NCBI GenBank assembly: GCA_032718475.1
Contig: JAUCBJ010006644.1
Span: 1-51,487 of the forward strand
Direction of reading: 5' to 3'
Length of the DNA: 51,487 nucleotides
Source of the DNA: Nemertoderma westbladi
Lineage: Eukaryota > Animalia > Xenacoelomorpha
In this document: positions 8,736-41,335 of the stretch, piece after piece
How positions within the stretch are numbered: the stretch's first letter is position 1
Layout: the number at the start of each line of letters is the position of its first letter
Notes under the pieces: generated by a model
Database searches by the model: none
What the model saw: only the letters and a program-made list of their open reading frames with translations
Told to the model about the DNA's origin: nothing
Translations under genes and position numbers: made by a program

Positions 8736-9267
8736 TGTGACGGGATCCAGGAGGGATCCCGATTTATCCGGTGTTTAGTTTACGCGTCCCCGCCGTGTAT
8801 AAAGAGTAAACGGAAATAGTGAATGAGTTCTGATATTCGGTGTATAATAATTGATAGGTATAAGATATAGATATGATGACTGTAGTATAATATACGGAAG
8901 GCGGGATACGGTAACTAAAGTCCCGTGCTCCCCTATCTAAACTAACTAACCTACACTGCACTGAGATAACTGAATTACTGACATTGTGTTACTGGTTATA
9001 TTGCACGGTGGCCTTATTGCTCTACTCAATCGATGCCTTGCCCCCCTCTGATTGGTTGATACCCTTGTTGGCGCCCCGTGGAGTGTTCCCGTTCACTCCA
9101 CCTGTACTCTCTGGGTTAGGGGTTTGGCCCCTGACCCTTTATTGTGTGCTTCCTTCCCACTCTTATTGGGATGGCACGAGTTGGTTAATTGCCCAATCTC
9201 GTGGCTCCCAATATTGCTTATCGGCTTATAACTTTATGGGGTGTTAGCGGGATTGAATAAGCTAACA
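8736..9267 (-). repeat. 3' LTR (532 bp) of the deleted copy
   Basis: TGTGACGGGATCC...GCTAACA, homologous to 27074-27611 with several indels, followed by the PPT complement CTCCCCCCC. Confidence 0.93.
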
Positions 9268-9980
9268 CTCCCCCCCATGCTATCTTCCCGGTAAGAAGAT
9301 AGCATCAACCAAAAAGTGCGCTACAATCCCGCTGGATCCCGATCTAGTATCGGGTGTGGGGTGGAATTCTTTTCTCTTGGAGCCGGCTTTCCAGACCGCC
9401 CCCTATGGGTATGATAACGCTACCCTGTGTGCCTGGCGTCTCATGTCGGGCCGATCGCGCTCACCTCTCACGCAACTTTTGTTTCCCCAACACTTCCGCC
9501 CCATCTCCTCTTCACTCTCACTCTAACTCTCTCATACACTTGGGCCTCCTCGTCCCTCACTCAACCTCTTATTCTCCCCCCCCCCCACGCTAGAATTGCG
9601 TCCGCACACTCTCCGCACTCCGCACTATTACTCCGTCCCTCAACCTCACTCTGACTGTCCCATCCCTTCTGACAAATCTCCCCCCCCTCTTGTGCCGTCG
9701 CACTCAAGAAGTGTGGAATTGTCTGGTGTCTCGTCCATAGTCCCATAGTCAGTTATCCCCCAGTCCCAGTGGCTAATTGAGAAAGGTTGTATGGCTATAG
9801 TACTTACTCCGAACGTATATATTTCTAGATTACTAATTACTACGTACGTACATACAAATTGCAATTGCATATGATTATTTGCATTAATTAGATTTGTACT
9901 TAATAGTTCGTACGTCCCACGCGGCGCCTTCCAGGCGTACCACGTCTAAGTCCCAGTCTCTCTCCCTCGACTCCGGGAAC

Positions 9981-12227
9981 CTATCTGTTCCTCTGGGGAT
10001 AGTTCCCCCTGGCGTCCTCTTCCCTGGGTCGTTTCTTGGTTATCACCGTTCCTCTGGCATTATCCGCCTTCTGTTTTCGGACCTTCGCCGCCACCTCCCT
10101 GCTGATCCCGGTCGTTGGCTCCTTGGGCGCTGGTGTTATTAGTGCCCGATATCGCTTCGCCGGTGGCCCCTCAGAGTGGCCCGGTTGTCTCCCTCTGGTG
10201 GCGTCCCATAGGATCATTTTCATTGCCTTTGGTACGTGCTCCGCCAAGAAATCCCTAAACTCCCTTCGGTTGTCTGGCGTCCACCTGTCCAGATACCTTT
10301 GCGTGTTCATCACTCCAGCGTACGACGCCGCCGTTGCTACCTCTTGGTAGGTAAACGGTAGCCTCCGCTTTATGATTTCCATGTGAGTCTCCTGATTGAT
10401 AAGGAAGAAACCCCACTTAAATTCCTGGGCCTTCATGCGCTGGCGCGTCATGGCCCCGACGTCGGCCCACTCCTCGAACCTTGTGAACTTCTCCTCGTCG
10501 TTCATCCAGTCGCACTCGCGTCCGTAGTGTCCCCGAAAGTGGCACTTTGTACATCGATTATGCAACCGTGGGCATGCCCCCATCCTGTGGCTTTGTTCTC
10601 GACAGTAGAGACAAAAAGTTCCCTTTTGGAACCGGTAAAGGCAATTCTTTTCTTGGTGGGTCTGTCTCCCACAATAGTCGCAGCCGAGTACCAATGTCTC
10701 CCGTCCCACCTCGTCCTTCGTCCCAAGCGATCTCCGCGGTCTGTGGAGTCGCTGGTAGGCGAACTTCTCTACGTTGGCCTCTCTATCTACATCGATCTCT
10801 CCGCCCCTCTCGGGCATCGTCTCCCCGAATACTATCCGTGGTGCCGTCCCCGGTTGTTCGCCCAACCTGATGGTGCCCCCCGCGAAATCCATCGCCGGCT
10901 CCTCGTGCACCCAGGTCCGCTTTGTTCCCGCGAACATGCATCCCGATGTCTCCGACATCCCAAATGGTATCTTGCTCTTAATTGGACCACTCAGCGTCCA
11001 CCCGAATGGTGTTAATATGGCCACCGGGTCACTCTGCTTGTCTTCGCCGAAGACCGTTTGCATTCTTTCGTGGGCTGTTGGGCAGTCCATACCTACTATG
11101 ATGGATACCTTCCTAACGTCCACGTCTGGGATTGAGAAGTCAATGTTGTCCAGGAATTTGTACTGCTCAACCTCGATGTTGGTTGGCCGCCTGGCATTGA
11201 TATTAATTGACTCTATCACTTGAATGGGGTCGATGGTTGCCCCATAGTCGCATCCTGGTGCCACTGCTGTAATTGCGCACCGTCCTGTTCTCATCTCCAG
11301 GACCTCATCTTTGCTAGAGATGGTTGTTACCGCCATCCTGCTCGGCCTCGTTCTCAATCCTATCTCCACGGCCACCCATTCCTCGATTAATGTGAAGGCA
11401 GCTCGACTATCAACCAGCATTAGTGTTGTTACTGATCGATTGCCTTCCCCGATCACTCGCACTGGTACTACTCCGAGTAGCACCGTTCCCCTCTTCTTCG
11501 CCCCTACTGTGCTCGTCGCCATCGTTTGGCCTCTCCTTTGACCAAATTTCATTGGCTTCTCCTTGCACTCCCTTGCTCTATGTCCACTCATTACACATCG
11601 CGAGCAGATTTTATTGCTGAACGCATAATCTATCTGATCCTGCCTGGGTAGCGCCTGCCAGTACCTGCAGTTCATAGTTTGATGAAGCGCATTTGCGTGT
11701 AGCTGACATTTGCTCTTTGGGTCGTAGCCTTCTTTATACAGTGCATTGCGTATCGCGGTTGCGTTCGTACCGAAGTCCCTACTATTCTTATTGTTTGGGT
11801 TTTGCCTACTGGACGTACTGGGGTTATGTTTATTTGTGCTGTTATTGTTTCCCTGTCCGTTCCATGATGTTGTCTTATTCTCGGCTAGCTGTGGACTTGC
11901 AGTCCCCTGCGTCGCTGCATATGGCAATGATTGCCTGAGTCTCGGTAATGCGTTCGATGTGTTGTGCTCTGGTTTCGGTCTATGGTAGTCTGTCTTCGGT
12001 CCCTTTCCCAGGCTGTCTTCGCTATAGACTGGGTCAGTTATTAGTTCAGCCTCGTAGTTTAAGAAGTTTGACATTTCTTCTAAACCCGGTTCCGCACCCT
12101 TCTTATCTCGAGTGGAGAAGGCAATTTTCCTCCACTTGTTGCGCAGCCAGTTTGGTAGTGCCTGCGCTATCGTGGTGATGTTGTTGGACGCATTGAGCTC
12201 GTACGGTGTGTCTAGCGTCTTCAGCAC
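9981..12227 (-). pseudogene. In-frame chimera: Gag C-terminus and protease fused to ORF3 zinc knuckles
   Basis: Pol-derived ...GCMFAGT joins ORF3-derived KRTWVHE at about 10922. The protease motif is LVDSRA rather than LVDSGA, and there is an upstream frameshift near 12296. Confidence 0.85.
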
Positions 12228-12426
12228 GATTAGCGCCTTTTCGACTTTGTTAGCGAACGTCTTAATGCTAACGGGATTATCCTGTAGGCCACCGCGATGT
12301 TATGCCTCTCAGCGTCTGCCTGATGATCTTGGCCGGGTGCCCGTATTCCCTATCCAGTGCCCGCCATGCTGTCGTGAAGCCGCCCTCTATTCCTTGATAT
12401 TGCCTCACGATGTCGTATGCTGGGCC

Positions 12427-13598
12427 TCACGTGTACACTTGTAGATACTTTAGGCACTCCGCCTGCGTCAAGTTTTTTGTTAGTATTTCGTTACTATACA
12501 TTCGCCGAAACTGTAGATATTCTTCCGGCCTACTCCCATCGAATTTGCATGGTTCCACGGGTGGTAGCTCGATCCTCGTTTTCAACGCATCGATCAATGT
12601 GGCCATCCCCATCGCCTGCGCTTCCAATGGATTCGACGGGTGCTGTATAGTTTCACCTGTCTGGTGCGTTCCGTCTGTCCTATTTCTTGACTTTCTCTGG
12701 CTTTGGTATGTCATCGGGGGTAGCGGCCCCCTCCATATATCTGTGTCACACGACCTGTTTTCGTCCAAGGGTCTCGTTGTTCTTGCTACTATCGGGGTAT
12801 ATTGTTGATATTGTGATGGGGGAATGTCACCCTGTCCCCCCCCCCCACCGGTATGTTTGGTACTGGGGTTGATGTTAATATGTTGGGGCCCATACACCTA
12901 TCCGCAATAATTCCCCCCTCCCCTGGGTATATGTTATGTCCCTGCATGCTGTAGTCATACTGCTGTGCTGATACCGGTATAGGCCTATCAGCTTCTGGCC
13001 TACCCGTCGGTATGTATTCCGCGACTTCCGGGTTCAATCCCGTTGTCCACGCTATCCCATCGCCTACATTGCCTCTCTCAGTATGGCCTACGGTATGTGC
13101 AGTAAGGCCTACAGTATGTCCTACAGTCTGCATGTGTTGTTCGGGATTGAAGTTTATTCTTCTCGAATAATCCTCCCCGCGGCTACCGTATTCTCGATCG
13201 GTAGGTATATCCCGTCGGAAAGTTTCTCTTCGACCCCCCTCTCTACTGTCCTCATCTTCGTACCGGTACATCGCGTACCCCTCTCTCGGCGCGTAGTGTG
13301 CCTCGCCGGGTCGCATCTCTCCGGGGCGACGGCAATCTCCCGGAGTCCGACCCCACTGACTCTCCGTTCTCATCTCAACTACCGACGGCTCGCTATCCGT
13401 CCTCGCTCTTCTATCGTTCGCGGCGATACCTCTACTACTGTCTTCTCTTCTTCTCCTTTCAGTGGAGTATTCCCGCTCGTGAGATCTCTCGCCGACCTCC
13501 CGGTTAAACCCCACTCTTCTTCTTCCCTCTTCTGATCGGGCTCGACGCTTCGTCCGCCCTCTTACGACGTCAACCTGTCTCTCCCTGCTCGGTCGCAC
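12427..13598 (-). pseudogene. Frameshifted N-terminal gag region of the deleted copy
   Basis: ORFs 12427-12897 and 12789-13598 match 37050-38200 of the full element; the frame break lies in an 11-C run near 12840. Confidence 0.8.
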
Positions 13599-13702
13599 GC
13601 CGCTGGGGATACTCGCAATCCCCCTATTACTTTCCTGACCAAATTGGTTTACTACGGAAGATCCGCAGTGGGCACACCTGAGCGGGTGTGGGCCACTCGG
13701 AC

Positions 13703-14176
13703 TAGGACTTTGTAATTATTTTGCAAATATTGGGACCATGCATTTTCTAACTTACAGGTTTCGTTGTATTGCTTGGATCAAACTTATCCTTTATTCTATA
13801 ATGCGTGGTATTTTACTCTCCGACATCGGTAGAGGTGAAGAGGTGTGTTGTTGGTCTGCCTCTGCGTCATTGGGGCGGGGGGGGGGGGGGGGGGGTGTGT
13901 TGGGGCAAGTGTCAGATTCATCTATTTGTGTTGATGGTTGGTGAGGATTCTACTTCTGGCTAGGTCTGGCCTAGAGTAGAAGCAGTTCCGCGGCAATAAT
14001 AATATTGCTCCTCAAAAGAGGGCCCTTACTGCATCAGGGACGCGTTTTTCGACAGAGCCCCGTCAGCTGAAACAGCCAGTGCCGCTAGTCGGTGGGGTTG
14101 ACTTGTTGACGAGAGGCTATTATGAGGCGCAATGGGATACGCATTGCGTATCTCCTTCTGTCAACCAATACTGGCC
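13703..14176 (+). repeat. Uninterrupted copy of the ~470-bp dispersed repeat
   Basis: Reverse complement of 5285-5653 plus 6907-6995, including the long G run. Confidence 0.85.
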
Positions 14177-15349: not shown

Positions 15350-15540
15350 GCATTCCGAGGACAACCAAAGTGGGGCTGCTTGGAACAAATTTTGTCATTA
15401 CATCTTATCATTGATTTTGCAATATATAAAAAATATAAATTATTTATTTGTTTTATAGATTTCTCTAAAGCATACGATAGGGTACCACGTAGCAAGTTGC
15501 TGGATGAATTAAGACTGTTAGTTAGGATGTGGAAAACGTA
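15350..15540 (+). mobile_element. Non-LTR retrotransposon reverse transcriptase fragment
   Basis: LFICFIDFSKAYDRVPRSKLL is the conserved LINE RT motif (FIDFxKAxDxV). Confidence 0.75.
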
Positions 15541-15728
15541 TGCTATTTCCTTGTGCAGTTTTAAAATCCGCGACTATTGATGATCACAGATTGATCTCTG
15601 ATTCTCATACTCTTATAATTAATTTGCTTTTAAGAATATTATTATGTATGGGATTATTATAATAAATTTACCTGTAATAACAATCAATGGCGTCATCCCT
15701 GGTCCCGTAACACTTTAATAAATCTTTT

Positions 15729-20891: not shown

Positions 20892-21894
20892 GTGGTATCA
20901 GAGGCTCCATTACTTGTGCTGGGGTTTTGCAAGCTGATATTAGTGGTACTTCTAGAGCTCCGTCTAGTGTACCAATCAGTACCACTGTTAGTGCCACTGT
21001 TAATGGGCACTACTAGTACCACTAATAGCAGTTATGCTGCAAATTTTAGGTCTAGTCAACTTATTACCAGTACAGCAACTGCAACCAGTCCCACTGGTAT
21101 TGGCAACGGAGACCTTAATGAGGGGCAGATTGTTGTATATCTTCCTTCACTTTCAGCATCACCTTCAATGATAAACTTGCCTTCCCCTACCACCCCTTGT
21201 TCAGTCATCCTTGCAAGGTGCGACTCTGTCCTTAAAGATAAAGGTTGTAGGAGGAACTTGAATTTTTGTTTTTCTTCAGATGATGCTAATAGTGAAGGAG
21301 AGATCATACCACCTCCTAAACGCCCCAGAGTTATTGATGATGATAGTGATTGCGAAGAGGTGGTTGGGAAGGGTGTCACACCTGGCTATAACTGGGGTGC
21401 GCAATCGGTTAAGGGCAAGCTTGCTAAACATGATTTTGACCTAAGGTTTGATCCGACCCATGTAGAGGTTCTCCAGAAATAGAAGGACTCCATGGAGGTG
21501 GATCAACGTAACAGTCGAAAATATGTCAAGCAAAACCTTAACATGGCTGCTACTATTGTGTTCCAGGTTCAAAGGCGGTTGGGCACCACTGATCAGGGTT
21601 TTGTAGAACTGTACAGTCTGTGACAATGGGCAGTTAAAGTTGGTGATGGCAGAGGAGCGTGAGAAATGTGGCACAAAGGGTGAAAGTTTAGATGGCCACC
21701 TGAAGTGCCTACTGCGGTTCTTTCAGTTCAAATCTGGATCAACTGGTGCAGATGAAATATCATCTCACCTACGATCCAAGATCTCCTTGGCCAGAGAGGC
21801 TAAATTCCGCAAAACTACCACAGTCCCTAGAGGGTCATCCCTAGAGAGACAGGAGAAGGAGGTAAACTCAATGACTGAGTTTCATGAGAAATAG
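20892..21894 (+). pseudogene. Interrupted coding-like segment of unknown origin
   Basis: Consecutive ORFs 20892-21482 and 21640-21894 are separated by stops; there is a PPPKRPR NLS-like motif but no family was recognised. Confidence 0.25.
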
Positions 21895-22116
21895 TAAGTA
21901 ATTGGTCAACATCTAACGTGACAAAATCATAAAAAATGGACATGCTATTCATTGGCTTCCTATATGGATTACGGGACATTTCAGATGGCAGTATATAAAT
22001 ATAATATTGCTTGTCCACGGTACCCTCTAAAAGTGGCAGCCCACATAGGGCCCAGGATCTCGAAAGGGTTAATTTTATAATGAACTTATGTTTAATATTT
22101 TAAGACGCAACTACGG

Positions 22117-22470
22117 ATGATCCCAGATCTCAATGCCCGCGACCACGTCAACAACGAGTTGGAATTACACGGAGGGAGAGGGTGGTACATCCTCGGCTGG
22201 GGTAAGCCGGCTACCTTGGTCGATGGTGTACCTGAAGACGCCAGAGTTCATATCACGCGAGTGATTCCGGCGGCCCCACTCTACCAATTCAATGTTTACG
22301 TGGCCGGGGGCATTGTGGGAGCCGGGGGTGGAGGTGTTGCGGGAGCAGGTGGTGGAGGCATTGCAGGAGCCAGGGGTGGAGGCGTTGCGGGAGCCGGGGT
22401 GGAGGCGTTGCGGGAGTCGGGGGTGGAGGCGTTGCGGGAACCGGGGGTGGGCCATAATTCGTTACAATAA
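22117..22470 (+). CDS. Unknown domain, copy 3, with Gly/Ala-rich 24-bp repeat tail; likely terminal exon
   Basis: LNARDHVNNELELHGGRGWYILGWGKPATLV....ARVHITRVIP, with an upstream TTTTAAG acceptor and AATAAA at the stop. Confidence 0.45.
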   Translation: MIPDLNARDHVNNELELHGGRGWYILGWGKPATLVDGVPEDARVHITRVIPAAPLYQFNVYVAGGIVGAGGGGVAGAGGGGIAGARGGGVAGAGVEALRESGVEALREPGVGHNSLQ

Positions 22471-22716
22471 AGAGGCATGATATATGACCTAAAAAGTATA
22501 AATTTCACAGTGTTAGTGCAATTAATAAATTTCATATATAATGTATTTGCGCGTGTGTATAACCCCCTAGTTACATTCTTAATATCATAATCATAGTCTC
22601 AACTTTTGTGAATTACGTGGCCTAAATAGATATATTTATCAGTTCTAGAAATTATTTTATCATATAAGTACATTGGTGCCATATCAACTATGTTACTAGA
22701 CAATAATATGCTAATT

Positions 22717-23860
22717 AGCAATAGCAAGAGGTTTTCAAAATGGCTAAACTACTCAGCACAATACCTGCTGGAATCCTATCTTTAATACCAGATACCACCC
22801 GCCCAGGATGGTTTAATGGAAATGAGGAACAACAATCATTGTCAAAATGGATGTGGTGCGTACACTACATTGTCTGCTCACAGATCCATGACTGTTTTGT
22901 AATAAAAGGGAGTTTGGAGAAAGGCCATATGGTCGACGAGTACGTTGTATTAGAAGGACTAGACAGAGGAACTTCTGTATCAATAAAAATGCTGTACACC
23001 CCTCCAATCTGGCAGGATCGGTTAACAGATTACATGCCAGACCTCATACGGAAAGGAATTGGAAAAGATGGGACAGAATACAACCGAAATAAGGCTGATT
23101 CCTTCCTCGATATTGAACCGCAATTAATTGAAGTAGCTATTTCCTATGTTGGGAATCCATGCCAGTCTTATACGCGGAAAGTTGAAGCGCTGATTATAAA
23201 GGACGTCAGAAATATCACGGCTATAGTAACTATCGACTTTTTCCAACCAGAGTTAATATACGGGGATATTGAATGTCTAAATGCCCAACAGATTTCATAT
23301 ATCCGGGATGCCCTAATCAAGCTAAGACTACAGTTGTCGGACAACGACTGTGAGAAAATTAAGGCGGCTGCAAGGGCTGATGAAGCCCCTCAAGTATTGG
23401 AGATGCCAGACAAAGTAATGTCACTGTTCAATCAGAAAACAGTTGATCCTAATAAAGATTTAGAAAAATGCCACATAAAGCGGATGGACCTACGCAAGGA
23501 GTGCCTGCATATTGCAATAGGAAGGATGTACGAGACAAGGGGTAATTTCGACCTTTTGACACACGCTGATAAAACACCTGATAAAAAACATGAAGGGTGT
23601 AAAATGACCGATAAAAAACATGAAGGGTGTAAAATGACCTGGAAGACAATGTTCCCCCTCGGGATGAAGAAGCTCCCTTAATGGATCAAACTACTAATAT
23701 ATAGGCATGTGAAAATCTAATGTCAAGACTGGTTCCAAATCAAGACACCAATCGTGAATTTGAAGACTTAATAAGGAAATGCTTACCACACTGGGTGAAT
23801 AACATCAAAGGCTGAGAGAAAGCTATGAGGAAAATTGAGGGAGATTGGGGGAGATCATAT
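22717..23860 (+). other. PA: Endogenous viral element: orthomyxovirus-like (Articulavirales) PA polymerase subunit, 5' part
   Basis: The intronless 313-aa ORF 22740-23681 has CVHYIVC, YVVLEGLDR, YMPDLI, LIEVAIS and SYTRK in the order of the influenza PA endonuclease motifs CTHLEVC, FEIIEGRDR, FLPDLY, FIEIGVT and YYLEK. AGCAATAGCAAG starts 23 nt before the ATG, and a degraded continuation runs to about 23860. Confidence 0.8.
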
Positions 23861-23867
23861 AATTCTG

Positions 23868-24200
23868 TCCTAAGTATTCCGTAGAAGATCAGAAGTTGTA
23901 AACTCAAACTATCCTAAGTATTCCATAGAAGATCAGAAGTTGTAACCTCAAATTATCCTAAGTATTCCGAAGAAGATCAGAAGTTGTAACCTCAAACTAT
24001 CCTTTAAGTATTCTGTAGAAGACCAGAAGTTGTAACCTCAAACTATCCTAAGTATTCCGTAGAAGATCAGATGTTGTAACCTCAAACTATCCTAAGTATT
24101 CCGTAGAAGATCAGAAGATGTAACCTCAAACTATCGTAAGTATTCCGTAGAAGATCAGAAGTTGTAACCTCAAACTATCGTAAGTATTATGTAGAAGAGT
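23868..24200. repeat. 44-bp tandem repeat, about 7.5 copies
   Basis: Unit TCCTAAGTATTCCGTAGAAGATCAGAAGTTGTAACCTCAAACTA starts at 23868, 23912, 23956 and onward. Confidence 0.92.
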
Positions 24201-24982: not shown

Positions 24983-25013
24983 ATGTGTAAAAATCCTTGT
25001 GTGTATGTCACGA

Positions 25014-27073
25014 TCCACGAAGCTAAGGAAAATCAACTACTTTCGCTAAGAAAGATTTTCCTTAGCTGAGATGGTCTATTCATAGTGGACTATTTTACTT
25101 GTATGGGGCAGATTAGTTTTTTTTTGATAGGTGAAAAAACTAGCCTTTAAAAGTACCCTGAAATTTTGCATGTATATACTACTCGTCGAGGCGCATCTTT
25201 TGGACTGGGTCTCATATCCAGGAAAAATCTGGTTTCCATGGCAACGGACTTAGAAAAAAGTCTATGTATTTCAAGTCAATATTTATAACTCTATTTGTAG
25301 GAAAACTATAATAGATATAAACTTGGGGTTTCTCAACTCAACTATAAGGTCCATAGCAGAGCCGATTGAGGTTAAATAGAAAATCCAGTTACCTTGGCAA
25401 CCGGGCTAAACAGATGTTAAAATTTATAAAATGTTAATTTGAAGCCTAAGGTTAAGGTGTTATGACTTGGAACCAACCCCTACCCCCACGATATAACTTA
25501 TTCTGCGTCCGAATTTGATTGTTCTATTTTGCAGTTACCATGACAACCGCTGTAAACAGATGTTTTTATACAAAAATTACTCATTTGGACATAGACTTCG
25601 CTATAAAATTTTACGAAACTGGTTATGTGTTAACTAGACCACTAGTTGGAACTTTTAGTGAAACTAAAAAACATTCCAGAAATATCTAGTTACCGTGGTA
25701 ACTGGAGTTTATTACAGATTATATCATTCAAGTCTATATTCATCCACGAAGCTAAGGAAAATCAACTACTTTCGCTAAGAAAGATTTTCCTTAGCTGAGA
25801 TGGTCTATTCATAGTGGGCTATTTTACTTGTATGGGGCAGATTTAGTGTTTTTTGATTCCGGAAAAAACTAGCCTTTAAAAGTACCCTGAAATTTTCCAT
25901 GTATATACTACTCATCAAGGCGCGTCGTGTGGGATGGGTCTCATATCCAGGAAAAATCTGGTTTCCATGGCAACGGACTTTTAAAAAAGTCTATGTATTT
26001 CAAGTCAATATTTATAACTCTATTTGTAGAAAAACTATAATAGATATAAACTTGGGGTTCCTCAATTCAACTATAAGGTCCATAGCTGAGCCGATTGAGG
26101 TTAAATAGAAAATCCAGTTACCTTGGCAACAGGGCTAAACAGATGTTAAAATTTATTAAATGTTAATTTGAAGCCTAAGGTTAAGGTTTTATGACTTGGG
26201 ACCAACCCCTACCCCCACTATATACCTTATTCTGCGTCCGAATTTCATTGTTTTATTTTGCAGTTACCATGACAACCGCTGAAAACAGATGTTTTTATGC
26301 AAAAATTACTCATTTTGACATAGACTTCATGATAAAATTTTATGAAACTGCGTATGTGTTATGTGGACCACTATTTGGAACTTTTAGTGAAACTCAAAAC
26401 ATTCCAGAAATATCTAGTTACCATGGTAACTGGAGTTTATTAAAGTCTATATCATTCAAGTCTAAATTCAATACTCTATTTGTAGCAAAATAATGTAATA
26501 TATATAAATTTGGGGTTTTGCAACACATCTATAAGGTCCATATACAAGCCGTTCGAGGTTAATTACACAATCCAGTTACCATAGCAACAATATTAAACAG
26601 ATGTTAAAATTTATAAAATGATAATTTGAAGCACAAGTTAATAGTATAATGACTTGGGACCAAGACCTACCCCCACTATATGACTTATTCTGCATCCGAA
26701 TTACATTGTTCTATTTTTCAGTTTCCATGACAACCACTGCAAACAGATGCATTTTGAATTGTGGCCCTCTGTTTAATTTTCCTTAGCTTCGTGGTTGCAT
26801 TTCCTTTAGGAAATGCCTTTCTAGTAACTCTATTTATAGAATAACCGCAATAGATATAAACTTGGGGTTTCTCAACTCAATGATAAGGACAATTGTCGAG
26901 CTGATTGAGGTTAATTAGAAAATCCAGTTACCAGGGCAACCATGCTAAACAGATGTTCAAATTTATAAAATGGTTATTTGAAGCATAACATTAAGGTATT
27001 ACGACTTGGGACCAATCCCTACCCCCACTATATCACTAATTACGCATCCAATTTAAATTGTCGCATTTTTCAG
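25014..27073 (+). mobile_element. Non-autonomous Helitron-type element A, 5' part; continues at 41336-41615
   Basis: Starts A|TCCACGAAGCTAAGGAAAAT. It is interrupted by copy B and by the BEL/Pao element; removing the latter restores TTTTTCAGTTTCCATGACAACC. Confidence 0.8.
25743..26824 (+). mobile_element. Non-autonomous Helitron-type copy B (1082 bp) nested in copy A
   Basis: 5' TC; 3' hairpin GCATTTCCT-TT-AGGAAATGC then CTTT-CTAG; inserted at TATATTCA|TAACTCT with no TSD; 19-bp subterminal inverted repeat CCACGAAGCTAAGGAAAAT. Confidence 0.85.
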
Positions 27074-27611
27074 TGTGACGGGATCCAGGAGGGATCCCGA
27101 TTTATCCGATGTGGTATTTAGTCCACGCGTCCCCGCCGTGTATAAGAGTGAAATAAAGATAACTGAGTTCTGAAGTTCGGTGTATAATAATAGGTTATAG
27201 GATATAGATATATTGTGAATTATACGGTAGGCGGGATACGGTAACTAAAGTCCCGTGATCCCCTAACTAAACTAATTGGCTGTACCCTATGCTAGCACTG
27301 CTGCACTGAGATAACTGAATCACTGATTAATAGGTTATTGGTTATATTGCACGGTGGCCTTACTGCTACTCAATCGATGCCATTCCCCCCTCTGATTGGT
27401 TAATACCCTTGTTGGCGCCCCGTGGAGTATTCCCGTTCACTCCACCTGTTCTCCTTGGGTTAGGGGTTTGGCCCCTGACCCTCTATTGTGTGCTTCCTTC
27501 CCACTCTTATTGGGATGGCACGAGTTGGTTAATTGCCCAATCTCGTGGCTCCCAATATTGCTTATCGGCTAATAACTTTATGGGGTGTTGGCGGGATTGA
27601 ATAAGCTAACA
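27074..27611 (-). repeat. 3' LTR
   Basis: 538 bp; I found one substitution versus 40793-41330 (CCCTATG vs CCCTACG). Confidence 0.97.
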
Positions 27612-27649
27612 CTCCCCCCCATGCTATCTTCCCGGTAAGAAGATAGCAT
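27612..27649 (-). other. Polypurine tract with adjacent 11-bp stem-loop
   Basis: GGGGGGGAG on the minus strand abuts the LTR; ATGCTATCTTC-CCGGTAA-GAAGATAGCAT lies at 27621-27649. Confidence 0.85.
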
Positions 27650-28321
27650 CAACCAAAAAAGTGCGCTACAATCCCGCTGGATCCCGATCTAGTATCGGGT
27701 GTGGGGTGGAATTCTTTTCTCTTGGAGCCGGCTTTCCAGGCCGCCCCCTATGGGTATGATAACGCTACCCTGTGTGCCTGGCGTCTCATGTCGGGCCGAT
27801 CGCGCTCACCTCTTCACGCGATTTTTGTTTCCCCAACACTTTCGCCCTACCTCCCCTCTACTCTCACCCTAACTCTCTCATACCCCCGGACCTCCTCGTC
27901 CCTCACTCAGCCTCTTATTCTCCCCCCCCCCCCACACTAGAATTGCGCTCGCACTCTCTCCGCACTTCACACTCTTATTCCGATTCTCAACTCCACTTTG
28001 ACTGTTTTATCTCTCCTGACGAACCTCCCCCCCTCTCGTGCCGCCGCACTCAAGAAGCGTGAAATTGTCAGTTGTCTCGTCCATAGTGCCATAGTCAATT
28101 GTCCCCCAGTCCCAGTAGCTAATTGAGAAAGGTTGTATGACTATAGTACTTACTCCGAACGTATGTATTTTACTGCTAATCACTACGTACGTACATACGA
28201 ATTGCACTTATATGGTTATTTGCATTAATTAAATTTATACTTAATAGTTCGTACGTTACATGCGGCGCCTTCCAGGCGCACCACTTCCCAGTCTCAGTCT
28301 CATTCCCCCGTCTCCGGGAAC

Positions 28322-30856
28322 TTATCTGTTCCTCCTCACGTCCTCTTCCCTGGCCCGTTTCTTGGTTATCACCGCTCCTCTGGCATCATCCGCTTTCTGC
28401 TTCCGGAACTTCGCTGCCACTTCCTTGCTGATCCCGGTCGTCGGCTCCTTGGGCGCTGGTGTTATTAAAGCCCGATACCGCTTCGCCGGTGGCCCCTCAG
28501 AATGGCCTGGTTGTCTCCCTCGTGTGGCGTCCCATAGGATCATTTTCATTGCCTTTGGTACGTGTTCCGCCAAGAAATCCCTAAACTCCCTCCGGTTCTC
28601 TGGTGTCCACCTGTCCAGGTACCGTTGCGTGTTCATAACTCCGGCGAACGATGCCGCCGTAGCTACCTCTTGATAGGTAAACGGTAACCTTCGCTTTATG
28701 ATTTCCATGTGGGTCTCCTGGTTTATGAGGAAGAAACCCCACTTGAACTCTTGGGCCTTCATGCGCTGGCGCGTCATGGCCCCGACGTCGGCCCACTCCT
28801 CGAACCTCGTGAACTTCTCCTCGTCGCTCATCCAGTCGCACTCGCGTCCGTAGTGTCCCCGAAAGTGGCACTTTGGACATCGGTTATGCAACCGTGGACA
28901 CGCCCCCATCCTGTGACTTGGTTCTCTACAGTAGAGACAAAAGGTTCCCCGTTGGAACCGGTATAGGCAGCTGCTTTCCTGATGGGTCTGTCTCCCACAG
29001 TAGTCGCAGCCGAGTACCAATGTCTCGCGTCCCACCTCGTCTTTCGTCCCAAGCGATCTCCGCGGTCTATGGAGTCGCTGGTAGGTGAACTTCTCTACGT
29101 TGCTCTCCCTGTTTACGTCTATCTCTCCGCCCCTTTCGGGCATCGTCTCCCCGAATACTATCCGTGGTGCCGTTCCCGGTTGCTCGCCCAACCTGATGGT
29201 GCTCCCCGGGAAATCCATCGCCGGCCCCTCGTGCACCCAGGTCCGCTTGCCGGATCTGTTCCAGAAGGCCCTCGCCCCACTGGCCGTCACCACCCTTCCG
29301 CCAACCCAGTCCGTGTCCGAGTGGCCTATCCTCTCGATGGGCGGCATCTCTCCGAATTCGTCGTCGTCGTCCTCCTCTTCCGGTAGTGTCTCCAATCCCG
29401 GTATCCCGATGGATCCACTATGTCCCTTCCCGCCTTGGCTCTCGCCCGTAGCTCTCCATCCCTCTAACTCCCTTAGCTTCCTTGGCGGTTGGTCGCCCTC
29501 GGCGCCCGCTGGTATGGGCATCGCGTGCAACCCCGACGTCGACTGTTTCGGCGATCCCACCGTCCATCCCAATTCTCGCCCTAGAGACTCCCCCGAACTC
29601 CCCGACGAAGTCCAATGAAGTTCGTCTAGGCCCGCCTGCTCCTCGAAGCCATAACTCTGTGTCCTGGCCTCCTCTTCCCTCTCCTCTGCTTCTATCCTCT
29701 CCCGTCTAGCGACTTCTTCCAGTCGCTTTGCTTCCCGTCTATCCATCTCTAGCTGCTCCCATCTCTGATACGGTGTATCTGTCTCCCCATCTACCAGATG
29801 TCGGCTGTTGTAGTACACCGACTCGCCCTTCAGCCCCGGGTGGTCTACCAGACCGTCAAAGGCCGTCTTAAAGGCTCTCCTGTAGCTTAGGGGTGATCCC
29901 GATAACAGAAATGCCCCTGGTTCCCTTTCGATAACTACGGTCATGAATAAGTTAAGCAAACTTATCATCATCCAGTCCTCCTGCAGGATATATCGCTTCT
30001 GATATACCTTTATCGCTCCTCTGCGAAACTGATATACCTCCTGCTTTCCCGGTCTCGCTCCCCACTTCAGCGAGTTCGCTGGTTCTGCTCCGTATTCTTC
30101 CCTAAACTTCCCCCAATCCATTGGTTTGTGGCATACGAGCCCCAATAATTGGCCCATCGCCACCGCCCCGCATTGGCCTGAGTTCTCGACCACCCCCAAT
30201 CCATCCGGTGCCGTCATAGCCATAAAGACTTTCTGCATATCCAGGAGGTTGGTGGCGTCCGGACCGATGATCCTCTCCGCGTCCTCGCGAATCGCCGATC
30301 CCACTTTCGTCGTCGACTTCTCTCTTACTAAGACTTGTACCGCTTTCGGCAATCGGTCTAATTTCGGCCCGTCCTTCTTCCCATACGTCCCTAGGTCGAA
30401 TAAGAAGATGTCCCCATTTGGCGCTGCCAAATGCAAGAGTATGGTCCTGGCCGACCCTGCCATTCCTCGTCTCGAACCCGCTTCGTCTTCCACGGTTCCC
30501 TCGTCATCTAGGATCATATATCCTCCTCTGTTGACGGATTCTATGAATCTTTTCCAGTCCTTCCTCGGCGATTCCCTCGGATACTTCGGAATCCCGAACT
30601 TCGCCTCGTCTCCTTTCACCACGTAGTGGAAGTGTTGGAAGATCGCGTTGTCCAGCGACGGCGTCCCGTAGGTCCCGACCAACCGCTGTTCGTGCGCCTC
30701 CCGGAAGTGATCCTGCAGCGCCCGTGCCGCGTGACCCCTTTCCAACCTCTCGTAGTATCCTCTCGTCTTCTCCTCCGGGTGTCTTTCGGTGAAATCCACC
30801 AATATTTATTTTCCTCCTGACTCCGCCTTTCTCTTCCTGATCAGCTTACTCGCCAT
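28322..30856 (-). CDS. Extra ORF3: DEDDy-like 3'-5' exonuclease, charged linker, three CCHC zinc knuckles
   Basis: Exonuclease-like motifs ILDDEG, LLHLA..IFLFDL, LP..VQVLV....TKVGSAIREDA, LLDMQ and QKRYILQED. Knuckles CDYCGRQTHQESSC, CLYCREPSHRMGAC and CPKCHFRGHYGREC. An in-frame ATG at 30856 is followed by TAA at 30808-30806; the listed 826-aa ORF starts at TTG 30802. Confidence 0.75.
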
Positions 30857-31370
30857 TCCGAACACTACACTCGCTCACCTGTAGGGTGGTGCCTTACCAA
30901 GGCGCAATACAGATGAGTGATGTATTAAGATGTTTCGTACAGTTCGATAATGGCCTACTTTTCTACTTAACTGCGCCTTTCAAGCTTAATTTAATCTAAT
31001 TAATTTCGGAGCTAGTAAATCAGCCTAATTTACAATTTCCGTCCGTTACTTTTATTATGTTCTAGAACGACTTTCCTTGTGTTACCACTATTTTCCGATT
31101 TTTTAGCCCTATTCTATTTATTTATTTATTTTGCTTTGATTCTACTGTCCTACTACTTACTACTGCCTATGGATTTATTCTATTCTCTCTCTGATCCATA
31201 TTCTGGCCTACTCAGTGGGCCTATGCAGTACAGCAGTATGCGTCGTGTGGCCACACGATTTATCCAGCTGCACTCATATGCCCCCCTCTCTCTACTAACT
31301 CTACTTACTGCTAACTAATATCTATATCCTATTTACCCCTTTTACCTCTCACTCTCTCTCTCTAACTAAT

Positions 31371-32020
31371 GGTACTACGTACCCCCTAACTCTAACTCTA
31401 ACTAGGTATCACGTACCTACTAACTCTAACTCTAACTAGGTACTACGTACCTACTAACTCTAACTAACTATTGGTACTACGTACCCTCTAACTCTAACTC
31501 TAACTAGGTACTACGTACCTACTAACTCTCTAACTATCGGTACTACGTACCCTCTAACTCTAACTCTAACTAGGTACTACGTACCTACTAACTCTCTAAC
31601 TGTCGGTACTACGTACCTACTAACTAACTCTAGGTACTACGTACCTACTAACTCTCTAACTATCGGTACTACGTACCCTCTAACTCTAACTCTAACTAGG
31701 TACTACGTACCTACTAACTCTCTTACTATCGGTACTACGTACCTACTAACTCTAACTCTAACTAGGTACTACGTACCCACTAACTCTCTTACTATCGGTA
31801 CTACGTACCCTCTAACTCTAACTCTAACTAGGTACTACGTACCTACTAACTCTCTAACTATCGGTACTACGTACCCTCTAACTAACTAACTCTAGGTACT
31901 ACGTACCTACTAACTAACTAACTTTAGGTACTACGTACCTACTAACTAACTAACTCTAGGTACTACGTACCTACTAACTAACTAACTTTAGGTACTACGT
32001 ACCTACTAACTAACTAACTA
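31371..32020. repeat. Internal tandem array, about 20 units of ~33 bp with a palindromic core
   Basis: GGTACTACGTACC cores separated by variable TAACTC/TAAC microrepeats. Confidence 0.92.
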
Positions 32021-32128
32021 TTATTTTTATTTTATTTTATTTTTATTTGTGTGGGAAGGGCGTCTCGCCCTCAATCCCACCCCCCTCAGTCCAAAACTTG
32101 GACGACTAAACTCCACTCTAACTCCGCT

Positions 32129-35100
32129 CTAAGGTGCTCCTTCTAAGAGACAGCATTTACCTACTGCTCTCCTGTAGGTTTTTCTGTCCTTCGCACCTAT
32201 CTTTCCACCTATCCGCACTTCTACCGATCGGACTCTTCCGTCCTCGTCGGAGTAGGTGCCTACAACTCTCGCCAACCGCCATTGGTTGTTGATGATAGTA
32301 TCATCCGTGACGATTACGAGATCTCCCTCTCTTAACTCCCTGTTCGGCTTCCTCCACTTGCTTCGCTTATGGAGAGTGGGTAGGTATTCTTCTACCCACC
32401 TCCTCCAATACTCTGCGCTTATTGCTTTAGCGACTTTCCAACTCTGGCGGGAATGTATGTCATCTGGGTCTACACCCCGCATATCGATGGTCGCTGGCCT
32501 TTCCATCAGAAAATGGCTAGGCGTCAGCACGTCTAACGACTCAGGGTCATCATTCTCCGGATATAGCGGTCTGCTATTAATGATCCCCTCGCACTTCGCA
32601 AGTACCGTCCGTAAGACGTCTTCAGTGACCATGTGGGTGTTCATCAGCTTCATCATTAGACGTTTTGAACTGCCCACCAGTCTTTCGACGCATCCTAGTG
32701 TATGTGGTGCATACGGCGTCCGTCTCTCCCACTTTACTTGTCGTCTCCTCATGGCCGCCCTGACTTCTTCTCCCTCCAAGATGTCTAAGGCCTCTGCCAT
32801 CTCACTCTCTGCGCCCACAAAGTTGGTGCCGTTGTCGCTATATATCACTGCGATCGTCCCACCTTTGCGGTCCCTAAACCTTTCTAAGGCGTTAATGAAC
32901 GCTGATGCGGTTGCATCTTGGGCGAGTTCTATCCCTACCGCCCGCGTATTGTTGCATACGAAGATAATACCGTAGCGTTTCTCCGTGTGTCGCATCACTT
33001 TGATCTTTATCGGCCCGAACATGTCCACACCGCAATGCGTAAATGGCGGGTCGTGCTGTCTTACCCTACTCGCCGGTAGTGGCGCCATCTCCTGTACGGC
33101 TCGTTCCTTCTTCGCTCGCCGGCAGGTCTGGCACTGCCCCACTACCGCTTTAACCTTCTTCCTTAGTTGTTTGACCCAATAGGTCCTCCTTATCTCTGTG
33201 AGGGTTCGGTTGGTGCCCCCATGCAGTATCGATTTGTGGGAGTCCCATATGATCTGGTGGACTATAGGCGATCCTGTGGGAATGATGATGGGTTTCGGTG
33301 GCACGACTATACTGTTGTTATATCCCACCCTAGAATTCATTACTAGAATCCCATCCTCGTTGAGTTGTGGCGACAGCGTGATCAACCCGCTGTCCCGTCG
33401 GAGGTGCTGTTGGTTGCCGACACGTTCCACTTCGTCGCTGTAGTTCTTGCGTTGTTCATAGCGGATCACTGCATTGGCCGCTCCTTCCAGATCTATGGTT
33501 GTCCTGGTCTTCTTGTACTTGCCGACTCCCGCAAGGAAATTCCCAAAGGCTCTCCAGTACGCCACTAATTTCTTGGTCTTATACCAACTAGAACTGTAGC
33601 TGAGGAGTTTATCCGTCGGGTTATCGCACAGTTCCCTTCCTGGTTGCACGTCCCTAATCTCCCTCACCATCTGGGAGTATATCTCTTCTCCCTCTGAATC
33701 TCCCTCTCCTTCTGATACTGGTTCCGAGCCCGGGTCCACCTTCCTCATCGGCGGCCAGGCCTCTCTATCGCTCAGAAATTGTGGCCCATGTTGCCACAAT
33801 ACTTCCTTCTTCAGGAAAGTGTGGCGTTCCACGCCCCTCGACAGCAAGTCCGCTGGGTTCTCATCTGTTGGGCAGTAGTGCCACCTTTCCAGTTCTGTGC
33901 TCGCCCTTATTTCGTCCACTCTATTTGCGACGAATATCGGGTATCTCGTCTTTTCGTTGTGTAGCCAACCAAGCACTACCATGGAGTCCGTCCAGTAGTG
34001 TGTCTCCACTATGTTGGGAATTGTATCCACTAGGTAGGCTGTGGCTCTAACTCCTAGTCTCGCAGCTGTCAATTCTAGCTTAGGAACAGATGCTGAATCT
34101 GGCGGCGTTGACTTAGCTTTGCTAAAGGCTAGTCTGGGCTTGTGAGCCCCCTCTCGTTGTACTAAATAGAGTGCCGCTCCGTATGCCTCTAACGACGCGT
34201 CGGAGAACATATGTAGGTCCAGATTCGTCATGTTCCCGTCCGGGACGTATACTCGCGGCATGTTATATGTTCCCATCCTCTCCAAGTCTCCTGTCCATTT
34301 GCTCCACTGTTTCTTGATGTCTTCTGGTACCTCTACATCCCACTCATCCTTCAACTTATATACTCTCTTGAGTATCTGTTTCCCCGTGACTAGTAATGGG
34401 GATGCTAGGCCTAGGGGATCGTATATCCTTGCTATATACGATACATAACCCCTCTTCGTATGGGTGTCTGCGCCCTCTTGGCTCAGCTGATACTTCAGTT
34501 CGTCTGTTCCTCTATCCCACACGATTCCCAATGCCTTTTGCTGCGATTGTGTTCTCTTATTTGCCATGTCCTGTCCTTTGGCTGTTGTAGGGTTGTCCAT
34601 GGTCGATTCCGGTTTCTTGTCTTCTATTTCCTTGATAAATTCTTCTGAACTGGATTGGAATTTGGTCAGGTTGAAGCCGGATCCTTTCAGGATGTCGCGA
34701 ACCTCGCGCCCTGTTTCCAGTATCTCCTCAACCGTATTTCCAGACTCCATACCGTCATCTACGTAGAAGCCGCGTCGGATCATATCGACGGCCCTACTGC
34801 TGTATCTATCTTCTTTCCCCTTTACCGTGTCTCTCACTGCCATAGTCGTCGTAAATGAGGACGACTTGGCCCCCATATTTTGTACTACCATCCTATACGC
34901 TGGTATTACCGGCGGTTCTTCTTCGCCGTTATACCATAAGAAGCGTTGACTGTCACTATCTTCTTCCGTTACACGTACCTGGTTGAACATGCCTTCTATG
35001 TCACACGTGAAGGCGTGTTTCCCGTTTCGAAACCTAAGTAACACCTCTATGCCCGAATTGTAAATATTTGGGCCTTCCAACAGGTAATCGTTTAAGCATT

Positions 35101-37336
35101 TTCCGTCGGTCTTTGCCGATGCATCGACTACCATCCTAAGTTTACCTTTCTTCGGGTCTAAAGCTACGTGGAGAAGCAGGTAGTATGTCCTGTCCGTGTT
35201 CGGTTCGTCGACCGGTAACTCCACGGCCCATCCCTTCTCGACGTACTTCTTGATCGTTTTGTGAATGTACTCGTTCTTCTCGGGGCTCCGTTGTAGTGTT
35301 TGTTTCAGTTTGCGGAGTCTCGTGAGTACCATCCCTCTATTATCGGGTAGCGGTATCTTCGGTAGTTTCCATACCATTCCTATTGTATACCGCCCCTCAT
35401 CACACGTCATCGATTCCTCCACACTTTGTAGAGCCTGCTTGTCTTCTACCGAGGTCCCGACCCCTGTCTCTTTCAGTCCCTCAAAGTCTTGTCTGAGCAG
35501 TCTTTTAAGCTGCTCCTCTGCTCCCTCGTCACCCATTTCCTGCATTGTTCCCGCGAACATGCATCCTGATGTCTCCGACATCCTGAATGGTATCTTGCTC
35601 TTAATTGGACCACTCAGCGTCCACCCGAATGGCGTTAATATGGCCACCGGGTCGCTCTGCTTGTCTTCGCCGAAGACCGTTTGCATTCTCTCGTGGGCCG
35701 TTGGGCAGTCCATGCCTACTATGATGGATACCTTCCTAACGTCCACGTCTGGGATTGAGAAGTCAATGTTGTCCAGGAATTTGTATTGCTCGACCTCGAT
35801 GTTGGTTGGCCGCCTGGCATTGATGTTAATTGACTCTATTACTTGGATGGGGTCGATGGTTGCCCCATAATCGCATCCTGGTGCCACTGCTGCAATTGCG
35901 CACCGTCCTGTCCTCATCTCTAGGATCTCGTCTTTGCTAGAGATGGTTGTCACCGCCATCCTGCTTGGCCTCGTTCTCAACCCTATTTCTTCGGCTACCC
36001 ATTCCTCAACTAATGTGAAGGCAGCTCCACTATCAACCAGCATTAGTGTTGTTACTGATCGATTGCCTTCCCCGATCACTCGTACTGGTACTACTCCAAG
36101 TAGCACTGTTCCTCTCTTCTTCACCCCTACCGTGCTCGTTGCCATCGTCTGGCCTCTCCTTTGGCCAAACTTGACCGGCTTCTCTTGGCATTCCCTGGCC
36201 TTGTGTCCACTCTTTACACATCGCGAGCAGATTTTATTGCTCGACGCGTAATCTATCTGGTCTTGCCTCGGTAGCGCCTGCCAGTACCTGCAGTTCATGG
36301 TTTTATGAAGCGCATTTGCGTGTAACTGGCATTTGCTCTTTGGGTCGTAGCCCTCTTTATACAATGCATTGCGTATCGCAGTTATATTCGTACCAAAGTC
36401 CCTACTATTCTTATTGACTGGATTTGGCCTACTGGACGTACTGGGGTTATGTTTATTCATGTTGTTATTGTTCCCCTGTCCGTCCCTTGATGTTGTCTTA
36501 TCTTCGCTTGTCTGTGGACTTGCAGTCCCCTGCGTCGCTGCGTATGGCAATGATTGCCTGAGTCTCGGTAACGCGTTCGATGTATTGTGCTCTGGTTTGG
36601 GCCTGTAGTGATCTGTCTTTGGTCCCTTTCCCAGGCTATCTTCACTATAAACTGGGTCCGTTATTAGTTCAGCCTCGTAATTTAAGAAGTTTGACATTTC
36701 TTCTAAACCTGGTTCCGCACCCTTCTTGTCTCGGGTGGAGAAAGCGATCTTCCTCCATTTGTTGCGCAGCCAACTCGGTAGTGCCTGCGCTATCGTGGTG
36801 ATGTTATTGGACGCGTTGAGCTCGTATGGCGCGTCTAGCGTCTTCAGCACGATCAGCGCCTTCTCGACTTTGTTAGCAAACGTCTTAATGCTAACGGGAT
36901 TATCCTGTAGGCCACCCGATGTTATGCCTCTCAGCGTTTGCCTGATGATCTTGGCCGGGTGCCCGTATTCCCTATCCAGTGCCCGCCATGCTGTCGTGAA
37001 GCCGCCCTCTATCCCCTGATATTGCCTCACGATGTCGTATGCTGGGCCTCCCGTGTACACTTGTAGATACTTTAGGCACTCCGCCTGCGTCAAGTTTTTT
37101 GTTAGTATTTCGTTACTATACATTCGCCGAAACTGTAAGTATTCTTCCGGCCTGCTCCCATCGAATTTGAACGGTTCCACGGGTGGTAATTCGATCCTCG
37201 TTTTCAACGCATCGATCAACGTGGCCATCCCCATTGCCTGCGCTTCTAATGGATTCGACGGGTGCTGTATAGTTTCCCCTGTCTGGTGCGGTTCGTCCGT
37301 CCTATTTCTTAATCTTCTCTGACTCGGATATGTCAT
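32129..37336 (-). CDS. pol: BEL/Pao Gag-Pol polyprotein (1735 aa open)
   Basis: Gag FDGS..EY..F, knuckle CSRCVKSGHKAREC, protease LVDSGA, RT FYVDDG, RNase H LHMFSDAS..AYGA and WTDS, integrase HHCC plus GVDMFGP, SDNGTNF and GCVERL, and the C-terminal WRRWVEEYLPTL typical of BEL/Pao. Confidence 0.97.
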   Translation of the reverse strand: MTYPSQRRLRNRTDEPHQTGETIQHPSNPLEAQAMGMATLIDALKTRIELPPVEPFKFDGSRPEEYLQFRRMYSNEILTKNLTQAECLKYLQVYTGGPAYDIVRQYQGIEGGFTTAWRALDREYGHPAKIIRQTLRGITSGGLQDNPVSIKTFANKVEKALIVLKTLDAPYELNASNNITTIAQALPSWLRNKWRKIAFSTRDKKGAEPGLEEMSNFLNYEAELITDPVYSEDSLGKGPKTDHYRPKPEHNTSNALPRLRQSLPYAATQGTASPQTSEDKTTSRDGQGNNNNMNKHNPSTSSRPNPVNKNSRDFGTNITAIRNALYKEGYDPKSKCQLHANALHKTMNCRYWQALPRQDQIDYASSNKICSRCVKSGHKARECQEKPVKFGQRRGQTMATSTVGVKKRGTVLLGVVPVRVIGEGNRSVTTLMLVDSGAAFTLVEEWVAEEIGLRTRPSRMAVTTISSKDEILEMRTGRCAIAAVAPGCDYGATIDPIQVIESININARRPTNIEVEQYKFLDNIDFSIPDVDVRKVSIIVGMDCPTAHERMQTVFGEDKQSDPVAILTPFGWTLSGPIKSKIPFRMSETSGCMFAGTMQEMGDEGAEEQLKRLLRQDFEGLKETGVGTSVEDKQALQSVEESMTCDEGRYTIGMVWKLPKIPLPDNRGMVLTRLRKLKQTLQRSPEKNEYIHKTIKKYVEKGWAVELPVDEPNTDRTYYLLLHVALDPKKGKLRMVVDASAKTDGKCLNDYLLEGPNIYNSGIEVLLRFRNGKHAFTCDIEGMFNQVRVTEEDSDSQRFLWYNGEEEPPVIPAYRMVVQNMGAKSSSFTTTMAVRDTVKGKEDRYSSRAVDMIRRGFYVDDGMESGNTVEEILETGREVRDILKGSGFNLTKFQSSSEEFIKEIEDKKPESTMDNPTTAKGQDMANKRTQSQQKALGIVWDRGTDELKYQLSQEGADTHTKRGYVSYIARIYDPLGLASPLLVTGKQILKRVYKLKDEWDVEVPEDIKKQWSKWTGDLERMGTYNMPRVYVPDGNMTNLDLHMFSDASLEAYGAALYLVQREGAHKPRLAFSKAKSTPPDSASVPKLELTAARLGVRATAYLVDTIPNIVETHYWTDSMVVLGWLHNEKTRYPIFVANRVDEIRASTELERWHYCPTDENPADLLSRGVERHTFLKKEVLWQHGPQFLSDREAWPPMRKVDPGSEPVSEGEGDSEGEEIYSQMVREIRDVQPGRELCDNPTDKLLSYSSSWYKTKKLVAYWRAFGNFLAGVGKYKKTRTTIDLEGAANAVIRYEQRKNYSDEVERVGNQQHLRRDSGLITLSPQLNEDGILVMNSRVGYNNSIVVPPKPIIIPTGSPIVHQIIWDSHKSILHGGTNRTLTEIRRTYWVKQLRKKVKAVVGQCQTCRRAKKERAVQEMAPLPASRVRQHDPPFTHCGVDMFGPIKIKVMRHTEKRYGIIFVCNNTRAVGIELAQDATASAFINALERFRDRKGGTIAVIYSDNGTNFVGAESEMAEALDILEGEEVRAAMRRRQVKWERRTPYAPHTLGCVERLVGSSKRLMMKLMNTHMVTEDVLRTVLAKCEGIINSRPLYPENDDPESLDVLTPSHFLMERPATIDMRGVDPDDIHSRQSWKVAKAISAEYWRRWVEEYLPTLHKRSKWRKPNRELREGDLVIVTDDTIINNQWRLARVVGTYSDEDGRVRSVEVRIGGKIGAKDRKTYRRAVGKCCLLEGAP

Positions 37337-41330: not shown

Positions 41331-41335
41331 TTCAG

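Follow-up and report, generated by a model that had tools for sequence, protein, structure and literature searches.

A probably decaying endogenous element from a poorly sampled orthomyxovirus lineage, carrying the N-terminal half of PA, in the genome of Nemertoderma westbladi

The DNA analysed here (the window) is a stretch of 51,487 nucleotides from Nemertoderma westbladi (assembly GCA_032718475.1, contig JAUCBJ010006644.1). From an ATG at 22740 to a stop codon at 23679–23681 it carries a single uninterrupted frame of 313 amino acids without introns; an earlier note made from the letters alone had described an intronless frame that starts here. The product of this open reading frame (ORF) corresponds to the N-terminal half of PA, a polymerase subunit of orthomyxoviruses. 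The features of the element and its immediate flanks are collected in Table 1.

Table 1. Coordinates of the PA-derived element and adjoining sequence in the window
Feature	Positions	Strand	Basis
Multi-copy host repeat, left flank	22450..22700	.	depth ∼360–380 against 43–70 inside the element in run X1
AGCAATAGCAAG, likely left end of the insert and conserved segment terminus (5' end, plus sense)	22717..22728	+	terminus comparison
Remaining part of the viral 5' non-coding region (23 nt, inferred)	22729..22739	+	lies between motif and ATG; alignment starts at M1
Truncated PA ORF, 313 aa and stop	22740..23681	+	ORF call, homology search, alignment
PA N-terminal cap-snatching endonuclease domain, about aa 1–216, PD-(D/E)xK fold	22740..23387	+	fold search, invariant residues
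PA linker and start of C-terminal region, aa 258–310	23511..23669	+	local alignment against shuffles
Exact 30-bp tandem duplication, in frame	23580..23639	+	in one contig of sample S2, absent from another (X2 record 16, X3 record 23)
Probable decayed viral sequence, low-copy, following the stop	23682..23826	+	same low-depth contigs as the ORF
41 nt between low-copy sequence and array	23827..23867	.	X2 record 16 ceases to match the window at 23826
44-bp tandem array, 7.5 copies, dispersed host repeat, right flank	23868..24198	.	unit recurs beside different sequence in runs X3 and X5

HMMER, run in full against 1.84 billion representative proteins, matched the ORF to three of them at E ≤ 0.001, and to no others, with E-values of 4.4e-10, 1.4e-9 and 1.7e-4. 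All three are full-length PAs, of 660, 674 and 673 residues, aligned to residues 19–202 of the ORF. One of them (P0003) is UMO75721.1, the polymerase PA of Xinjiang sediment orthomyxo-like virus 1, and the other two (P0002 and P0004) are unnamed JGI/IMG metagenome proteins. Each matches the Pfam family Flu_PA (E = 0.0019, 2e-9 and 3.8e-6, two of the three passing the curated cut-off), and P0002 matches Thogoto PA with an E-value of 9e-17. Over the nuclease region the ORF is 27–28% identical to each relative, the relatives being 26–35% identical among themselves, and the alignment of all four sequences begins at M1 in every one. Direct searches of Pfam and PDB sequences with the ORF gave nothing useful (three chance matches, E > 0.5), and at the level of sequence its link to named genera and their PAs is transitive, passing through the relatives. 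A profile of the four sequences reached Thogoto PA at ∼1e-30 to 3e-30 and influenza PAs at 5e-15 or weaker, in matches that come from the C-terminal half, which is absent from the window. Among longer proteins, a word-indexed search found that none of 1106 candidates matched the ORF, and P0002 as the query recovered only itself. The viral contigs searched held no relatives of the ORF; the metagenome contigs held one, apparently P0004's own contig of 2085 nt.

Catalytic residues in the influenza order, which the earlier note had pointed out, are all present: H42 (nt 22863), E72 (22953), P100–D101 (23037–23042), E131 (23130) and K147 (23178) are invariant in all four aligned sequences. Influenza A has H41, E80, D108, E119 and K134 (PMC3893164, in the numbering quoted there). 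The spacings in the ORF are 30 (H–E), 29 (E–D), 30 (D–E) and 16 (E–K), as against 39, 28, 11 and 15 in influenza A, so that the insertion claimed between PD and E is real. That these residues would be equivalent to the influenza set is argued from order, spacing and fold rather than from a residue-level superposition. The five residues, together with a D–E spacing of 30 in all four sequences, mark one lineage, and because the five are conserved across it the virus of origin would have possessed a working cap-snatching nuclease of the influenza type. The PA-X slip word occurs at 23546 only, and not at the end of the nuclease domain.

The fold was compared through a structure model built from the four-sequence alignment, with a mean pLDDT of 52 and with residues 51–127 mostly below 50; the single-sequence model was unusable (pLDDT 37). 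In Foldseek against the PDB, all 46 of the matches listed were influenza, Thogoto or Dhori PA or polymerase chains, the best at E = 8e-4. VIA-align against 48,161 representative chains placed orthomyxovirus PAs in all of the top eight positions, at Z 10.7–13.1 over 146–163 residues with an rmsd of 3.3–4.7, and the next fold was Prp8 at Z 5.6, with bunyavirus endonucleases at 5.2 or below. The viral structure library BFVD gave as its best match the PA of Wenling orthomyxo-like virus 1 (A0A2P1GNP8; E = 2e-9, 22% identity), with influenza at 7e-5. The comparison with the influenza PA N-terminal structure that had been proposed as a check thus leads, like the sequence search, to orthomyxovirus PA and not to a non-viral protein or another virus order.

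Similarity to PA does not stop with the nuclease. In local alignments it extends to about residue 310, where 0, 4 and 12 of 500 shuffles reach the score obtained against the three relatives. The C-terminal PB1-binding domain was not found in the window by a profile of the three relatives run in six frames, which matched 22809–23591 only, and its lack fits a truncated fossil. No PB1 was identified in the window, and no other viral ORF was found by a Pfam scan of 74 of the 87 flank ORFs listed. The sequence relatives, the Flu_PA matches, the fold and the presence of the element as DNA bear out the earlier proposal of an endogenised Articulavirales PA. The order was correctly named; the lineage, called undescribed at the time, is thinly sampled, since it has a named relative in Xinjiang sediment orthomyxo-like virus 1 and its best structural match is Wenling orthomyxo-like virus 1.

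On the left, the motif AGCAATAGCAAG (22717–22728) starts 23 nt ahead of the ATG and agrees at 11 of 12 positions with the segment terminus of Dhori virus, as that sequence is quoted in PMC7019218, and at 10 of 12 with influenza A Uni12, as given for the primer in PMC12455950. With one mismatch or fewer, the Dhori form occurs only once in the window on either strand, where 0.34 matches are expected, and the chance of such a motif falling within 60 nt upstream of the ATG is about 2e-4. The motif was noticed before the comparison was chosen, so a factor of several should be allowed on that figure. The influenza terminus alone is not significant in the window (3 matches against 3.97 expected). It is likely that an AGC-starting terminus precedes a short 5' non-coding region here, as in Orthomyxoviridae segments, and if the motif is the segment terminus the copy would have reached the 5' end of a plus-sense RNA (mRNA or cRNA). 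A relative's contig, L001, has 21 nt ahead of the ATG and shows no terminal motif at its start, though contig ends are often incomplete. In all three sequencing runs that hold the element (X1, X2 and X3), depth is greater at 22691 than at 22702, which suggests that other copies of the flanking repeat leave the window's sequence 15–25 nt before the motif, a boundary that contig ends cannot settle. This distance is close to the leaders of 8–18 nt reported for cap-snatching orthomyxoviruses (PMC3893164, in the part cited).

These three runs come from two samples in two studies of one organism, and hold 0.44–0.66 of the element's sampled words. Their status as DNA is marked by guess and one may be the source of the assembly. 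The studies lie four years apart; no RNA run is among the datasets listed as holding the element's words. Their contigs cover all 30 bins of 21000–24100. The left junction is bridged by a contig of X1 (record 6, spanning 22656–22779), with more than 31 letters on each side, and the summed contig depth in that run falls from the left-flank level to that inside the element (Table 1). Depth is not copy number, but a step of this kind is what a low-copy insert next to a multi-copy repeat should give; this repeat (22450–22700) has no second copy within the window. The element is thus viral sequence in DNA joined to host sequence, and it is present in more than one individual. A further run, X5, was considered as an empty-site allele and rejected, as it is without the multi-copy flanks as well as without the element.

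The right end is less well defined. Support for the junctions, which had been named as a point to be checked, comes on the left from the bridging contig; on the right, none of the records listed bridges 23826 to the array. The sequence after the stop has no detectable PA similarity in any frame (nine frame-by-relative tests, the best reached by 29 of 500 shuffles), and a post-stop frame that had been matched by eye to a PA 'PW' motif failed against shuffles. A 1570-nt contig (X2 record 16) fits the window over 23340–23826 and then continues for 1083 nt with no further fit listed, whilst X3 record 23 continues for 1139 nt past 23810. A full PA of 660–674 residues would need ∼0.9 kb of further coding sequence, and a full-length segment in other versions is plausible. 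There is no poly(A) at the right end, and a 5-nt word present on both sides was rejected as a target-site duplication, being attributable to chance. The route of entry is not marked by retroelement sequence, poly(A) or a convincing target-site duplication.

Sample S2 holds more than one version of the element: in paired overlapping contigs, one member is identical to the window and the other differs from it by 4 of 121 letters (X2) or 8 of 191 (X3). Of the S2 contigs, one contains the 30-bp duplication and another is without it, and it is therefore likely that the duplication arose after insertion. Decay had been proposed to begin with this duplication. It is exact, at 23580–23639, as described, but as the cause or start of decay it does not serve, since the frame is kept and PA similarity continues through it; the frame breaks at the stop 13 codons later. 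In each of the three runs one letter of that terminal codon (23679–23681) is changed, and the codon still reads as a stop. Other versions carry a nonsense change in the codon of the catalytic residue E72 (contigs of X2 and X3) or at codon 218 (X1), and a contig that skips 60 nt near the start of the ORF (22792–22853) in X1, X2 and X3 represents a further version. The description of the nuclease domain as still open therefore holds for the version in the window and fails for those with the nonsense changes; an open nuclease belongs to some versions only and gives no evidence of selection. Among the differences listed, 14 are single-letter changes in sense codons, of which 5 are synonymous, 7 missense and 2 nonsense (the count draws on 15 ORF differences among the 40 rows listed of 128). 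The neutral expectation is 21–26% synonymous and the probability of 5 or more in 14 is 0.15–0.28, which is no significant excess. It is likely that the element is decaying, and the changes fit neutral decay.

The setting had been expected to be rich in transposable elements, and the window does consist mostly of repeats: a young BEL/Pao retrotransposon, an older deleted copy, arrays and fragments. The CpG ratio is 0.88 in the window and 0.63 in the insert, which is A-rich (35%); in the relative's contig L001 it is 0.66. Pao elements, which are metazoan, and the CpG ratio of 0.88 suggest that the host is an invertebrate animal. The intact BEL/Pao element (27074–41333, minus strand, 14.3 kb) has 541-bp LTRs that are 99.6% identical, a 5-bp target duplication and an uninterrupted gag-pol frame of 1788 aa (32129–37495), and sits in a satellite-like repeat 3.2 kb from the insert with no contact between the two. 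Because its LTRs differ by 0.4%, as against up to 3–4% between versions of the insert, this copy is likely to be younger than the insert and not the agent of its insertion. Downstream of pol it carries an extra ORF of 827 aa (28322–30805, minus strand) with CCHC-type knuckles after the first third, for which Pfam and PDB sequence searches were blank; by eye, the first third resembles a DEDDy 3'–5' exonuclease.

The older Pao copy (8736–13635, minus strand) is 86–92% identical and has lost pol to an internal deletion. An irregular array of long repeats occupies 25000–27073 and 41334–48613, with copies 91–98% alike at spacings of 0.45–1.5 kb and no Rfam match, and a 27-bp tandem array of 38 copies at 49463–50499 has frames open on both strands. 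Inverted copies 95–99% alike (5302–5658 and 6907–6994 against 13703–14143) belong to a non-coding element of ∼450 bp and lie 7–8.5 kb apart. Weak Pfam matches below the cut-off fall at 1074–1331 (replication protein A OB domain, E = 8.5e-4) and 15350–15577 (reverse transcriptase fragment, E = 0.014). Rfam and tRNA searches gave no matches.

We consider it very probable, at roughly 0.88, that the element is a viral fossil, a broken endogenous DNA copy that covers the first half of PA from an orthomyxovirus, likely made by reverse transcription in the host and likely now decaying. A viral plus-sense PA RNA would have been copied to its 5' tip by a host reverse transcriptase, likely that of a retroelement (a LINE or an LTR element), an assignment made because orthomyxoviruses have no DNA stage, and a DNA copy of the first half of PA would then have entered the germ line and drifted, likely without function. 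One rival origin, with a likeness to PA in fold alone, is a bunyavirus L endonuclease or a PD-(D/E)xK nuclease of cellular or transposon descent; Prp8, an R2 retrotransposon and bunyavirus endonucleases do appear at Z 4–5.6. Such an origin is largely refuted, and in our view scarcely credible, given the gap from Z 10.7 to 5.6, three sequence relatives that are all full PA subunits, and similarity that extends past the nuclease. An assembly artefact, in which a live virus or episomal viral DNA was joined to host repeats, would be easier to entertain if one considers that both flanks are repeats, that none of the contigs listed spans the whole stretch, that beyond 23826 X2 record 16 no longer follows the window and that the DNA status of the runs is a guess. 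We judge it highly improbable all the same, as the element occurs in runs of two studies separated by four years, its left junction is bridged, and stops, indels and a duplication of this kind are impossible for a replicating virus.

The remaining alternatives concern what the host made of the insert, and what exactly was inserted. The host may have domesticated a free nuclease domain, as a PA-X-like RNase or a dominant-negative polymerase subunit; the version in the window offers 313 open codons with all five catalytic residues, a nuclease with a short tail resembles the layout of PA-X, and the nearest feature matches of P0003 are PA-X clusters, at a score below 0.9 that makes them a lead only. 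The nonsense changes at the E72 codon (X2, X3) and codon 218 (X1), the 60 nt skipped early in the ORF in X1, X2 and X3 and the lack of a significant synonymous excess make domestication very unlikely. Selection might instead act on the insert as an RNA template, in a piRNA-producing region whose small RNAs are directed against the parent virus, with decay of the protein irrelevant. The surroundings are dense in transposons, the insert is held in both samples that share its flanks, and there is a molluscan precedent in a probable rhabdovirus endogenous viral element (EVE) with one-strand 5'-U small RNAs, as reported in the section of PMC6085071 consulted; neutral insertions also survive in transposon-rich DNA, however, and we regard this role as unlikely. 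A bolder version of the fossil reading is that a whole cap-snatched PA mRNA was captured. The 15–25 nt before the AGC terminus would then be the stolen host leader, other haplotypes would keep the full 2.1-kb segment, and the element would name an invertebrate host for a sediment-derived clade in which an influenza-type nuclease, still intact, goes together with a terminus and a C-terminal half of the thogoto type. We find this combination doubtful; were it true, the element would record the state before thogotoviruses lost cap-snatching cleavage.

On the preferred reading of a host-transcribed PA fossil, this endogenous element is new, is likely decaying and comes from an orthomyxovirus lineage that has been little sampled; it gives no indication of a new function for the host. 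Direct Pfam and PDB sequence searches fail to recognise an ORF so divergent, and standard EVE screens would likely miss it. The relatives, from sediment or environmental metagenomes, are not linked to any host, and the copy in the germ line is evidence for infection of this animal group by the lineage; it is likely that the virus group whose closest sequence relatives come from such samples infected invertebrates. The spread of the element across species could give a minimum age, and the preserved terminus would supply a likely promoter sequence for the lineage together with a precise junction for studying how negative-strand RNA enters genomes.

Among known viruses, the closest in sequence are the PA of Xinjiang sediment orthomyxo-like virus 1 and the two metagenome proteins, with the same five catalytic residues at D–E 30 and E–K 16. 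They differ in being full length (660–674 aa) and in having no host shown, whereas the copy in the window stops at 313 aa and lies in host DNA. No mention of the name 'Xinjiang sediment orthomyxo-like' was found in the papers searched, and a literature search by title and abstract opening returned nothing on the element itself, although supplementary EVE tables could list it. Wenling orthomyxo-like virus 1 is exogenous, and its PA (A0A2P1GNP8), the best structural match, is not among the three sequence-search matches; Wenling viruses are mentioned in passages of PMC11282168 and PMC12472937. In the portions of the reports cited, exogenous viruses of nematodes (PMC12770441) and of the dog whelk (PMC6085071) have a PA only weakly or partly like that of thogotoviruses, and new clades of invertebrate orthomyxoviruses are described (PMC12277240, PMC10636315).

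The PA endonucleases of influenza A, B and C resemble the ORF in fold (Z 10.8–13.1), in the order H, E, PD, E, K and, at 10 of 12 positions of Uni12, in the terminus. They differ in a D–E spacing of 11 against 30 and in a structural identity of only 14–19%, and the C-terminal half of the relatives is nearer to Thogoto. The PA of Thogotovirus (Thogoto, Dhori) resembles the element in fold (Z 10.7–11.3), in the C-terminal half of the relatives and in the Dhori terminus, with 11 of 12 positions. According to the part of PMC3893164 cited, the thogotovirus PA-Nter (THOV, DHOV and JOSV) is inactive and has lost the H, the two E residues and the catalytic K. The catalytic set lost in thogotoviruses is intact in the ORF, which thus lacks the degenerate PA-Nter site that is a trait of the genus Thogotovirus.

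Orthomyxovirus EVEs are already known as a class, and those derived from PA are rare. In the accounts cited, insect cases are mostly NP-derived and quaranja-like. The main text of one vertebrate EVE survey (PMC11521997) contains neither 'orthomyxo' nor 'articulavir', as far as that text goes, and the mosquito orthomyxovirus EVEs itemised in PMC10956553 comprise 180 NP, 6 PB1, 9 GP and 28 hypothetical-protein elements, with PA in none of the 223. Orthomyxovirus EVEs are also reported from the firefly (PMC6191289, in the part cited). Chilo suppressalis has a PA-derived example, CsOrEVE2, and the EVEs of this species are, in the sections of PMC12810003 cited, mostly quaranja-like and 49–77% identical to known viruses. 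The element in the window belongs to the same class of event as these insect and tick EVEs, and differs from them in being ∼28% identical to its nearest relatives and in having kept a likely segment terminus.
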